Below, one piece after another: positions 45,950-49,484 of a stretch of DNA of 64,000 bases. The stretch is from Escherichia phage vB_EcoM_VR26, in sequence record NC_028957.1; one strand, given 5' to 3'. The notes under the pieces were generated by a model. That model did no database searches. It worked only from the letters and a program-made list of their open reading frames with translations, and was not told the origin of the DNA. The position numbers and the translations under genes are program-made. Position 1 is the stretch's first letter. Every line of letters begins with the position of its first letter.

Positions 45950-46156
45950 TCACTTGCGACGACGTTTTGGTAATGGTTTAGGGAAGAACATTGCTTTACC
46001 TGCAGGGGTCAAAGTCACACGCAAAGCATTACCAATACCAAGGGATGATTTAACCAGACCTTTGGCTTTTAACTCACCAAATGCTTGGCGTTGTTCAGGG
46101 TCACGTGTGTTAACCATCAGACCTTTTTCACCAGCAGCTTTGATTAATTCTAACAT
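45950..46156 (-). CDS. hypothetical basic small protein
   Basis: 68 aa; basic C-terminus KPLPKRRRK; promoter with inverted repeat upstream. Confidence 0.45.
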   Translation of the reverse strand: MLELIKAAGEKGLMVNTRDPEQRQAFGELKAKGLVKSSLGIGNALRVTLTPAGKAMFFPKPLPKRRRK

Positions 46157-46184
46157 TTTATTCTCCAGTTTTTATTTGGTAACT

Positions 46185-46225
46185 CAGTATGGGAACATTA
46201 TACGTCTATCCCATACTGATGTACA
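46185..46225 (-). promoter_or_regulatory. early promoter with perfect 10-bp inverted repeat bracketing the -10
   Basis: TGTACA 46220-46225; TATAAT 46197-46202; arms cagtatggga (46185-46194) and tcccatactg (46209-46218). Confidence 0.5.
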
Positions 46226-46461
46226 TCTATTTTATATAATTTTTAATATCAATTCTACCCTGGTAGTGCTTGGCGGTTTCCTTCATCTTTTCTACGTCAA
46301 TACCAACAATAACCTCACATGATTGACTTCCATGATGGTGTTTAAAATGTTCAATCGCTTCCTCTCGCGTTTGTTTGGATACGCGCGGTCTCATATGATT
46401 CATAAGGGCTCCTTAGTAAAAATTCATTATGCATCAACAGAGACAAGTTTGTATACCTTTA

Positions 46462-46493
46462 AAATAAAAAAAAAAGGACCCCGAAGGGTCCTT
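46462..46493 (-). terminator. rho-independent terminator (UUCG tetraloop, long U-tract)
   Basis: aaggaccc-cgaa-gggtcctt preceded on plus strand by A14. Confidence 0.6.
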
Positions 46494-46687
46494 AGATTGC
46501 ACTCCAAAAATTATGGAATCTTATAGTATTGATAGCCCAGTTAACAAAACGCCTGGTTTGTTTGGAAGTTGGTTTACACGTGTACTTAATGTTGATTCGT
46601 CTGCCAGTTTCCCGACAGACTGCTTCGAGATACCAGCGCCGACCTTTATTGGGTCTTCCATATGATAAGAAGACCTTCATTTCTTCA

Positions 46688-47698
46688 TTAACGATAATAG
46701 GAATTGTGGTTGTCAAGATATACCTCTTCAACAAACTTGTCCCAGAACTTCATGTCTACCTTATCAGGCATACCGTTCTTGGCCGCCCAGACGGCATTGG
46801 TTTCGACTTCATCGACGATTGCTTCAAGTTCAGCTTGTACATCTTTAAAAGCGTGTAGGCCTTGTTTGATTTCAAGGATAAATGGAGCCGTACGTAAAGG
46901 ATATTGAAGGTCACCGGTCATATAAATTTCCTTCAGCTGATATCCAGCTCGATAAGCATGACTCAATGCTTTCCAGTCAATACCTTCATTCGCTTCGGCC
47001 TTACGAGCGCGTTCACCATATTCGGCATCAAGTTTATTCAGAGATTGCTTAAGCTCGATTAATGACAAAGTAGTTTGGTATTTGCGACCGAGAACAGTAT
47101 AAAACGTTTGAGGACCGGTTTTCTCATGGTTATGGAACACCCATTCGCAAAATTCGTTCTCTGGAAGACGATGCTTAATATCTTCAACTTTAGTACGACG
47201 TTGTTTAGTCGTACCATCTTCTTGGTAGTCAACCCACTGTTCAGGAATCTGGTTAACAATTGCCAGTACACCACGTAAAGCAGCCAGTCTAGAACCTTTA
47301 ACACCATATTTTGAAGCTTGCTTACGGACATACCCCAAATATGCTTTCATGTTGGTCGTATAGAACCGTGAACGGTTGTCTTGGATAAATTTCCATACAT
47401 CTGGTAAATCGGATTTGACTACCAGGTTAGCCGGAGTGTGAATCATGTCCAGAGCAACAGTTTCACCTTCAGCCGCCAGTTTAAAGAAATATTTCAGGCT
47501 ATAAAGCTCGTGGTCAACATCGTCTTTAGTGTTTTTGGATGCCGTGTTATTCGTGTTCAAGTTTGTATGATTCATAGCCGTACCTAACAGAATGTCACGT
47601 GGGTGTGGAACAAAGATTTCCTTAAAATCGACATCAGATTCAGGAGTACTTGTTCCATAAAGATGTGAGCCAAAATAGCCCTTCATAACTGTTCTCAT
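46688..47698 (-). CDS. nucleotidyltransferase-fold protein (Pol-beta superfamily)
   Basis: 336 aa; N-terminal FGSHLYGTSTPESDVDF fits the G[SG]-x9-13-D-x-[DE] pattern; later acidic VALDMIH. Confidence 0.5.
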   Translation of the reverse strand: MRTVMKGYFGSHLYGTSTPESDVDFKEIFVPHPRDILLGTAMNHTNLNTNNTASKNTKDDVDHELYSLKYFFKLAAEGETVALDMIHTPANLVVKSDLPDVWKFIQDNRSRFYTTNMKAYLGYVRKQASKYGVKGSRLAALRGVLAIVNQIPEQWVDYQEDGTTKQRRTKVEDIKHRLPENEFCEWVFHNHEKTGPQTFYTVLGRKYQTTLSLIELKQSLNKLDAEYGERARKAEANEGIDWKALSHAYRAGYQLKEIYMTGDLQYPLRTAPFILEIKQGLHAFKDVQAELEAIVDEVETNAVWAAKNGMPDKVDMKFWDKFVEEVYLDNHNSYYR

Positions 47699-48501
47699 TA
47701 TTCGCCTCTTTCATAGTCTTCAATAAATTGCATAATTAAACGTTGATAGTTAGATTTACGGTATCCTAATTTACTAATATGAGTACCAAAAGCTCCACGC
47801 TTAGGCCTATTTAATTTAACCCATAAAGAATAAAGCAAATCATAATCTTGCCAATGTTTTCCTATTCTTTGCTTTGCTTTAGAAGCGTCGGACTGCCTCT
47901 TTTTAGTCTCTGGATTATTTAGAGATTTCTTAACAGCATTTGAATGTCTTTCTCTAACACCCGGGCGTTTAAATGCTTCTTTAACAGATTTAGAAATTTT
48001 CTCTTTAACTTCAGGACGGTTTTGAGCTTCTATTTGAGCCGCCGACATTTTATCTTTTATTTCGGATAGACTCATAGTTATAGAACGTTTATTTCTATAC
48101 TCTTTGGTCTTCCATAGTTCTTTCATCGTATTTGAATGAATTTCTGAAAATTTTTCTCTAACTAATTGGTAGCCCCTAGAAGTTAGTTTAAGATTTCTTC
48201 CTAGAGAATCCTCGCCGAAGTTATAAAATGACCACCAGGCATAAATTAATCCAGAAGAATCAGAATGAATTCTGGCTAGAAGCCAGTGTGCTATAAAATG
48301 TTCTCTGGCCGTCAGCAGAACTAAATTATTAGGTTCATCACTCCCACCAATACATGATGGGAGTATATGATGGGACTCTGTATAAAAATTTAATTTGGAT
48401 TTGTCTAATCCTCTGAATTTACCTCTTTGGATTAGACTATCATAAAGCTTTGTATAATTCATTATTATTTTGTTTTGTCCTCGAAGTGAATTACCGGACA
48501 C
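47698..48501 (-). CDS. HNH homing endonuclease (Mob-like)
   Basis: 267 aa; HNH core ESHHILPSCIGGSDEPNNLVLLTAREHFIAH; repeated basic C-terminal modules; AT-rich. Confidence 0.7.
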   Translation of the reverse strand: MSGNSLRGQNKIIMNYTKLYDSLIQRGKFRGLDKSKLNFYTESHHILPSCIGGSDEPNNLVLLTAREHFIAHWLLARIHSDSSGLIYAWWSFYNFGEDSLGRNLKLTSRGYQLVREKFSEIHSNTMKELWKTKEYRNKRSITMSLSEIKDKMSAAQIEAQNRPEVKEKISKSVKEAFKRPGVRERHSNAVKKSLNNPETKKRQSDASKAKQRIGKHWQDYDLLYSLWVKLNRPKRGAFGTHISKLGYRKSNYQRLIMQFIEDYERGE

Positions 48502-48920
48502 ATCTTAGATTTACGAGCTTTAATGTATTGGACGACAAGGTTTTCTTTAATTTCCTTTCCTTCACGCTCAGCTTTAATTCGTTTCCATTCTTTTTCTTCT
48601 TTATGTAAATCGTACCAGGTCCATAAATTCATTAGACCATACATTAAACCAAATGCTACCGCCAGAATAAGAGCCAGTGTAGATAGCCCCAAAATAAAAC
48701 CTAACCCCAAACCAACAGGAGTACTTAATACAAAGAACTGCTCCAATACACCAGCACCTGCAACAGTTAAGGCGAAAATAGTACTACCTGCAACCACAGA
48801 AAAAACAAAACAGGCCCATACAATTTTCCAGAAGTAAGCACACAATGAGTGTGGTCGAGAATGACGGTCATAAAAACGGTCGTGTAATTTAGCGTGCCAA
48901 GCGTTTGTATTGATAATCAT
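48465..48920 (-). CDS. membrane protein
   Basis: 151 aa with hydrophobic segments and charged C-terminal tail. Confidence 0.45.
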   Translation of the reverse strand: MIINTNAWHAKLHDRFYDRHSRPHSLCAYFWKIVWACFVFSVVAGSTIFALTVAGAGVLEQFFVLSTPVGLGLGFILGLSTLALILAVAFGLMYGLMNLWTWYDLHKEEKEWKRIKAEREGKEIKENLVVQYIKARKSKMCPVIHFEDKTK

Positions 48921-48929
48921 AATAATTCC

Positions 48930-49484
48930 TTATGCGTTCATAGTTGGGATAACAGTGTTCAGGTATTTTACCAGAACTTTTAATTCGTCTTTAGCGAATA
49001 CTACTTCAGCTTCACCATCGTGGGTCTGGATGATAGATAACATATCGCGACCTTGATGTTGGCAGACACTGAATTCAGTATTATAATCACCTTCTTCATC
49101 ACCTTCAAAGGTTTCGCTTGAATGCATAATAGCATCACAACCAGGGATTTTCCACTCGAGCTCAGGTACGCACTCTTCTTGGAAGAGTTTAAAAATTTTC
49201 TCTAAAAATTCTGAACGGTTTTTAATGGATAAACAAGCCCATTCGGTTTCCAGATTAAAGCCATTTTCACCTCGATACAACCAAGCCACAACTTCATCGT
49301 TAATTTTAAAGACACGATTATTAGTTCGAATATACTGCTCTGCATCAATAACAGACAACTCGTACAGGTTCTGAATATCTTGAATGGTCAAAACGACTGT
49401 ATCATCTTCTTGTTTAAGCACGATTGCATTATCAATTACATCAGCAGTCAGGTCACCAAACAACCCAGATTTTTCAATAATCAT
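48930..49484 (-). CDS. hypothetical acidic protein
   Basis: 184-aa ORF. Confidence 0.45.
   Translation of the reverse strand: MIIEKSGLFGDLTADVIDNAIVLKQEDDTVVLTIQDIQNLYELSVIDAEQYIRTNNRVFKINDEVVAWLYRGENGFNLETEWACLSIKNRSEFLEKIFKLFQEECVPELEWKIPGCDAIMHSSETFEGDEEGDYNTEFSVCQHQGRDMLSIIQTHDGEAEVVFAKDELKVLVKYLNTVIPTMNA

Follow-up and report, generated by a model that had tools for sequence, protein, structure and literature searches.

We examined a 64,000-nt stretch of the genome of Escherichia phage vB_EcoM_VR26 (NC_028957.1; hereafter the window, in which all coordinates are positions) and found in it the orthologue of T4 nrdC.11, whose product, a diverged RlaP-family protein (PF10127), belongs to the Pol-beta nucleotidyltransferases (NTases). 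Taking family, fold and gene context together, we consider it reasonably likely that the protein acts as a template-independent, metal-dependent RNA 3'-terminal nucleotidyltransferase that carries out gap-filling in phage tRNA repair. The protein has the family membership, the predicted fold and the conserved residues of an RlaP-type enzyme, and its bacterial homologues are found in an RNA-repair operon setting. We infer that the NrdC.11 clade shares RlaP chemistry and that its target in a T4-like infection would be trimmed tRNA. The gene itself is already known, as an annotated T4 nrdC.11 orthologue and a recognised PF10127 member, and represents no new class; what is added here is a confident model, a new assignment for the third catalytic acid, the definition of an insert and a motif that mark the clade, and evidence for the presence of the clade in RNA-repair operons.

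46688..47698, minus strand: nrdC.11 orthologue, coding sequence for 336 amino acids (aa), supported by the open reading frame (ORF) call, PF10127, phrog_388 and identity to T4 and VR7 NrdC.11

The ORF starts with ATG and its product has the N-terminus MRTVMKGYFGSHLYGTSTPESDVDF. An initial annotation, made from the letters alone, had placed a 336-aa ORF at 46688-47698, and the ORF call agrees with it and supplies the strand, which that annotation had left out; all described features of the locus lie on the minus strand. The product is 82% identical to T4 NrdC.11 over all 336 residues without a gap; with the NrdC.11 proteins of VR7 and VR25 (Gaprivervirus) the identity reaches 99%. The T4 orthologue (336 aa, nrdC-mobD region) occupies the same position, downstream of mobD and upstream of the block that runs from nrdC.10 to nrdC. 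PF10127 (RlaP, 'RNA repair pathway DNA polymerase beta family') matches the protein with a score of 41.9 bits (curated cut-off 23; E 1.2e-10), with the match spanning only model positions 25-142 of 249; it also matches 39 of 40 diverse homologues of the clade (best E 2e-19). The phrog_388 'nucleotidyltransferase' family is matched with an E value of 4e-132, and an NCBIfam scan of the protein gave nothing above threshold. The assignment to the Pol-beta nucleotidyltransferases made in the initial annotation is thus upheld by PF10127, by phrog_388 and by the modelled NTase core described below.

Homologues were found in 1546 phage records, and a search of 1.84 billion representatives returned 3053 cluster representatives at 50% identity, nearly all of them full length at ~320 aa. 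Many GenBank and UniRef entries name NrdC.11 orthologues 'thioredoxin', apparently a label inherited from the gene name nrdC, and single records call them an HNH homing endonuclease or an ArsR regulator. These labels are annotation errors, the protein being a PF10127 nucleotidyltransferase, and the 'thioredoxin' labels in databases should be corrected. A chance or non-functional ORF was also considered and is ruled out by 16 invariant residues among homologues that are 34-51% identical and by conservation in more than 1500 phage genomes.

A first AlphaFold run with 23 sequences, all at least 67% identical, gave a predicted local distance difference test score (pLDDT) of ~35 for residues 1-30, and this model was discarded. 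The accepted AlphaFold2 (AF2) model was built from an alignment of 40 diverse homologues with 34-51% identity (A2) and reached a mean pLDDT of 93.8 and a predicted template modelling score of 0.80. In this model the chain folds into an NTase core, then a beta-rich insert and finally a helical bundle; its parts and motifs are:

47294..47698, minus strand: N-terminal NTase domain, ~aa 1-135 (AF2 model, invariant columns, hhalign to canonical RlaP)
47627..47635, minus strand: DxD metal-binding motif, codons D22-V23-D24 (invariant in 40 of 40; aligned with canonical D39/D41)
47513..47521, minus strand: codons D60-V61-D62, an h[DE]h motif at the start of strand 61-67 (invariant in 40 of 40; D62 aligned with canonical D72)
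47447..47449, minus strand: D84 codon, within 'VALDMIH', fourth conserved acid, on helix 80-86 (aligned with canonical invariant E94)
47069..47251, minus strand: beta-rich insert, ~aa 150-210 (modelled strands, variable A2 columns, PF10127 match ending at model position 142 of 249)
46694..47062, minus strand: C-terminal helical bundle, aa 213-335 (invariant R230, K243, H247, R250, P267 and G280; motif DWKAxSHAxR)

The modelled NTase domain begins with beta1 (2-9), G10-S11 and a short helix, followed by beta2 (23-30), which opens with D22 and D24. A helix and a strand (44-48) then lead into an invariant loop (T49...K55-N56-T-x-D59-D60-x-D62) and a further strand (61-67), after which come helices, with D84 on helix 80-86, and a helical region at 99-149. 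Residues invariant in the 40 A2 sequences are G10, G15, S21, D22, D24, N56, D60, D62, G78, Y131, R230, K243, H247, R250, P267 and G280. The Gly-Ser and Asp-x-Asp signature on which the initial annotation had rested corresponds to G10-S11 and D22-x-D24, and both Asp codons were checked in the DNA (D22 at 47633-47635 and D24 at 47627-47629). The KNTxDDxDxE loop is specific to the clade and invariant. The insert, with modelled strands at 154-158, 164-168, 184-191, 195-202 and 205-208, is likewise specific to the clade, and it is poorly conserved and has no aligned counterpart in canonical RlaP (~250 aa). The C-terminal helical bundle, which ends in a long helix modelled at 316-335, is presumed to form the RNA- and NTP-binding half of the cleft.

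RlaP, a name reportedly given by Burroughs and Aravind in 2016, provides the closest comparison. When the NrdC.11-clade profile was aligned by hhalign with a profile of 15 canonical RlaPs (A3), residues 2-129 matched with a probability of 91% (E 9.6e-7), and the alignment pairs G10-S11 with G27-S28, D22/D24 with D39/D41, D62 with D72 and D84 with E94, all invariant in the canonical proteins. The Pol-beta catalytic motifs of RlaP are thus present: hG[GS], [DE]h[DE]h and, on the core strand that follows, a third carboxylate, the strand positions being taken from the model. Because the alignment pairs D62 with D72 and D84 with E94, D62 would be the third catalytic carboxylate, giving a predicted D22/D24/D62 triad, and D84 the fourth conserved acid. 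The later acidic residue that the initial annotation had pointed out in VALDMIH is therefore present, and D84 is conserved in at least 90% of A2 sequences without being invariant, but it is probably not the third catalytic acid. The clade and canonical RlaP share the Pfam family, the GS, the DxD, the third Asp and the fourth conserved acid, whereas the NrdC.11-type proteins are ~80 residues longer and have the beta-rich insert at aa ~150-210 and a KNTxDDxDxE loop of their own. A Foldseek search of the AF2 model against the PDB, which the initial annotation had proposed as a check, did return NTases, but the matches are weak (best E 5.8e-3, template modelling score ~0.25). No relatives turned up when the PDB was searched by sequence and by profile, with the protein, its clade profile and the canonical RlaP profile as queries, the PfRlaP coordinates not being among the chains searched.

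The chemistry that we propose for the phage protein has been described for canonical RlaPs. In a December 2025 preprint (PMC12776372), the Pseudomonas enzymes PfRlaP and PaRlaP added 1-2 nucleoside monophosphates (NMPs) or deoxynucleoside monophosphates (dNMPs) to the 3'-OH of RNA with a preference for Mn2+, and were inactive on DNA or protein, leaving E. coli proteins unlabelled. In a mimic of cleaved tRNA, RlaP favoured the 3' end of the 5' half over the acceptor end, and pretreatment with RlaP of a tRNA that lacked one anticodon-loop nucleotide partly restored aminoacylation after ligation (PMC12776372). In the crystal structure of PfRlaP from the same work, the NTase domain is N-terminal and the helical domain C-terminal, and the last helix packs back; the model of the phage protein broadly resembles this layout, with an NTase domain, a helical bundle and a long terminal helix, and has the beta-rich insert in addition.

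To see the clade outside phages, we turn to its bacterial and archaeal relatives. One genome per prokaryotic species was scanned, which gave 80 loci with full-length homologues (34-50% identity), many of them on megabase-scale chromosomes; ORFs were called in these loci, neighbours were clustered and representatives annotated with Pfam, many of the contigs being short. A canonical full-length RlaP (175-272 bits on PF10127) is present in 20 of the 80 loci and in ~15 of them lies immediately next to the NrdC.11-like gene, in the same orientation. RtcB occurs in 8 loci, Ro60/TROVE in 6 and Pnkp in 3, and at least one neighbour from this set of four is found in 27 of the 80. For rtcB within 6 kb, the 10% of loci observed compares with an estimated ~0.3% for a single-copy gene at a random position. 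The 80 loci cover several phyla but, with synteny shared among related lineages, do not count as fully independent. Two examples illustrate the arrangement. In Nitrosospira (L041) the order is Ro60, a small ORF, RtcB, RtcA, the NrdC.11-like gene, RlaP, Hen1, MoxR AAA and vWA, and in Asticcacaulis (L077) it is Hen1, Pnkp, the NrdC.11-like gene and RlaP; the two NrdC.11-like proteins align with the window protein over their full length at 40% (E 5e-75) and 36% identity (E 2e-60), respectively. The association with RNA ligase and repair genes that marks RlaP is thus found for this clade in bacteria, and the NrdC.11 clade itself, not canonical RlaP alone, resides in bacterial RNA-repair operons.

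The NrdC.11-like gene occurs in tandem with canonical RlaP in bacteria, not as its replacement. In such loci (L008, L013, L014, L021, L029, L041, L049, L051, L057, L059, L064, L077, L079 and L081), the NrdC.11-like gene (~320 aa) is followed immediately by a canonical RlaP of ~255-290 aa, often with overlapping stop and start codons. The tandem of two RlaP types suggests different roles or a heteromeric enzyme. A separate neighbourhood was seen at L007, L010, L030, L033 and L036, where the NrdC.11-like gene is accompanied by a ResIII/SNF2-type helicase and a protein of ~510 aa with a uracil-DNA-glycosylase-superfamily domain; at L030 and L036, RtcB lies a few kb away.

In phages, the partners for such an activity are encoded elsewhere in the genome. 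VR7, the source of one of the 99% identical NrdC.11 proteins, carries both pseT (Pnkp) and rnlA (Rnl1). In support of a link, the numbers of phage records with NrdC.11, Rnl1 and Pnkp are almost the same within each of several genera (286/287/286 for Klebsiella, 83/83/83 for Shigella, 69/69/70 for Acinetobacter and 75/77/77 for Aeromonas). Rnl1 and Pnkp also occur, without a gene of the NrdC.11 type, in phages of Streptomyces and Mycobacterium. Rnl1 joins 5'-P to 3'-OH ends, and this 5'-P ligase fits RlaP chemistry because it needs the 3'-OH end that RlaP leaves. The tRNA repair carried out by T4 Pnkp and Rnl1 is the textbook case of a phage reversing host 'suicide' RNA damage, while RloC-type nucleases, which also excise the wobble base, have long been argued to defeat this pathway. 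The purpose proposed here for NrdC.11 is like that of Pnkp and Rnl1 against PrrC, the restoration of host tRNAs that a suicide nuclease has cut, and the same phages encode all three genes. The T4 pathway is experimentally established with two enzymes; NrdC.11 would add gap-filling, which is needed only after nucleotide loss of the RloC type. In the proposed mechanism, D22, D24 and D62 would hold two divalent ions that prime the 3'-OH at an RNA break for attack on an NTP, so that one or two nucleotides are added to the broken 3' end. The substrate would be the 5' halves of tRNAs cut and trimmed by host anticodon nucleases, such as those of the RloC type, which excise the wobble base. Once the gap had been filled, Pnkp would heal the ends and Rnl1 would reseal a full-length, usable tRNA. 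A role of this kind was predicted for RlaP by Iyer et al. 2021 (PMC7824862), who found that its distribution mirrors that of RNA ligases in jumbo phages and proposed that it restores nucleotides lost to RloC-type nucleases before ligation. The segment from nrdC.11 to mobD.3 can be deleted from T4 and is dispensable on laboratory hosts (PMC9825161), as would be expected of a conditional counter-defence gene.

Several observations weigh against this assignment. Significant alignment with canonical RlaP is limited to the NTase half, and together with the extra insert this means that the choice of substrate could differ; for the C-terminal halves the hhalign match is not significant (E 0.08), K243, H247 and R250 aligning there with K149, Y153 and R156. 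The available biochemistry comes from Pseudomonas enzymes in cluster 1a of a similarity network, whereas T4 NrdC.11 is placed in PF10127 as an RlaP of unknown function in cluster 5 (PMC12776372). If any NTP can be added without a template, the correct anticodon would return in only a minority of molecules, a weakness acknowledged in the same preprint. In 53 of the 80 prokaryotic loci no RNA-repair neighbour lies within the available flanks, and the usual presence of a canonical RlaP next door in bacteria speaks against redundancy of the two proteins, which may have different jobs. Phage nrdC.11 is not adjacent to rnlA or pseT, and the near-equal counts of the three genes are confounded by common descent within the Straboviridae. 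Among distant phage homologues, that of Ochrobactrum phage vB_OspM_OC (L084, 855-2258 and 7920-8450; 23% identical) has a Ro60-related gene ~5 kb upstream, a MazG-like NTP pyrophosphohydrolase immediately downstream and NAD-salvage genes nearby, while no RNA-repair gene was found among the neighbours of the homologue in Vibrio phage K491, and the two together lend weak support to a repair role.

An NTase could instead act on proteins or small molecules, as enzymes of the MNT/KNTase type do, and AMPylate a host HEPN-type RNase toxin like the type VII antitoxin MntA or modify a host metabolite or antibiotic-like compound. We regard this as unlikely. The MntA model reaches 13.2 bits (cut-off 60), over the GS-DxD turn only, NTP_transf_2 reaches 13.8 bits (cut-off 21), and, unlike PF10127, no KNTase/MNT Pfam family reaches threshold. 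The gene has a homing endonuclease and a DUF7279 ORF as its neighbours in the phage, not a HEPN toxin, and the bacterial homologues adjoin RtcB, RtcA, Pnkp, Hen1 and Ro60, with no HEPN-toxin family among the annotated neighbours. Canonical RlaP, moreover, leaves E. coli proteins and DNA unlabelled (PMC12776372). The same 1-2 nt extension of a 3'-OH that RlaP performs could also serve in relaxed CCA repair or in the tailing of tRNA or other RNA 3' ends, countering toxins that attack the acceptor end or marking host RNAs for decay. PfRlaP does label rRNAs and full-length tRNAs and discriminates little among NTPs, but in the cleaved-tRNA mimic it prefers the 3' end of the 5' half to the acceptor end (PMC12776372). 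The operon partners are ligases and end-healing enzymes, implying resealing of internal breaks; no CCA-adding or PolyA_pol head-domain family gave a Pfam match at E<=0.1, and poly(A)/poly(U) polymerases appear in Foldseek at a probability of <=0.1 only. Work at the acceptor end thus seems to us improbable as the function of the phage protein.

The initial annotation had further raised the idea of interference with nucleotide-based immune signalling by an enzyme of the cGAS/DncV type, and this part of it found no backing: neither fold, sequence nor defence models relate the protein to the cGAS/DncV-like nucleotidyltransferases (CD-NTases). Here the protein would make cyclic or linear oligonucleotides, or, like HalB of the Hailong system, an oligodeoxyadenylate decoy that keeps a host effector off. 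Its sole support is a generic structural resemblance to HalB (PDB 9dbh), a defence NTase that synthesises oligodeoxyadenylate, and this likeness is confined to the generic NTase core, at 13% identity over 133 residues and without a relationship at the level of sequence, just as no PDB chain gave a sequence match. HalB, at 217 aa, primes synthesis from a tyrosine of its own and works with the HalA channel; nothing of this kind, a partner HalA gene included, was found for the phage protein. No CD-NTase, cGAS or OAS is among the top structural neighbours, the PADLOC scan of the protein matched no defence system, and both the assignment to RlaP and the RNA-repair neighbourhood point elsewhere. A signalling enzyme is accordingly the least probable of these explanations and very unlikely. 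There is slightly more room, though still little, for the possibility that the NrdC.11 clade is a specialised second transferase, which might for example read a broken tRNA and add the correct wobble nucleotide, or a HalB-like synthesiser of short decoy oligonucleotides against oligonucleotide-gated defences. The canonical RlaP neighbour in bacteria, the beta-rich insert and the KNTxDDxDxE loop suggest the former, and the tandem, in hinting at a non-redundant role, is the main reason that this modestly novel alternative stays. Either version, if true, would be a counter-defence activity not yet described in T4-like phages.

The placement of the gene in the nrdC-tk block, as the initial annotation had it, is supported by synteny with VR7 and T4, where the order is nrdC ... 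nrdC.9, small ORFs or nrdC.10, nrdC.11, mobD or the membrane protein, mobD.1 ... rI, tk. The neighbours in the window are:

48930-49484, minus strand: MobD.1 homologue (PF24449 at 4.6e-30, PF24448 at 2.6e-19)
48465-48920, minus strand: predicted membrane protein, 151 aa (phrog_944)
47698..48501, minus strand: mobD-like HNH homing endonuclease, 267 aa, upstream of nrdC.11 (phrog_655, 2.9e-55)
46492..46716 (74 aa) or 46492..46734 (80 aa), minus strand: small downstream ORF, DUF7279 / phrog_8921 (TTG starts at 46716 / 46734)
46464..46493, minus strand: intrinsic terminator, 8-bp GC-rich stem, TTCG loop and T10 tract
45950-46734, minus strand: three small ORFs replacing nrdC.10, of 80 aa (DUF7279, phrog_8921), 58 aa (phrog_12120) and 68 aa (phrog_6001)

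The mobD-like gene is inserted between the membrane-protein gene and nrdC.11: its GTG start overlaps the gene upstream of it and its TAA stop shares bases with the ATG of nrdC.11 (TAATG). It is present at the identical site in T4, TH40 and E33 and absent from VR7, VR25, SP18 and JS10, and is a variable insertion with the presence/absence polymorphism typical of homing endonucleases. In the four phages without it, the membrane-protein gene directly overlaps the start of nrdC.11 (by 4 nt in VR7), and translation of the NTase is probably coupled there to that of the small membrane protein. Conservation of the membrane-protein gene at this site does not extend to T4. The MobD.1 homologue matches both Pfam domains of the T4 y05I-like putative transcription factor.

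On the other side of the gene, the initial annotation had described a short ORF overlapping the 3' end before a strong terminator, and both are present. The DUF7279 ORF overlaps nrdC.11 by 29 nt (TTG at 46716) to 47 nt (TTG at 46734); the former start has an AAGAGG Shine-Dalgarno sequence 6 nt before it and corresponds to the annotated start of VR7ORF100c in VR7. The stop of this ORF falls within the terminator (AAGGACCC-TTCG-GGGTCCTT, then T10, at 46493..46474 on the minus strand), which has an RNA folding energy of -15.4 kcal/mol (z = -2.9) and closes the transcription unit. It comes after the first of the three small ORFs, which stand here in place of nrdC.10, the neighbour of nrdC.11 in T4 that is absent from this phage. 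T4 nrdC.10 (L002, 3696-4664) encodes 322 aa with weak AAA/STAND-NTPase matches. Tk.4 (T4 tk.4 at L002, 10267-10734; also in VR7), encoded in this early-gene block a few kb further upstream, is annotated as a macro-domain (A1pp) phosphatase, an activity that handles by-products of RNA 2'-phosphate removal, and is possibly another RNA-repair accessory. ARAGORN found zero tRNA genes in the whole window, so that any tRNA cluster of the phage sits outside it.

Overall, the locus makes testable an old question, namely how T4-like phages handle nucleases that both trim and cut tRNA. If NrdC.11 fills the gap, then T4-like phages would own a three-enzyme repair kit, and this step of the arms race with their hosts could be tested directly.

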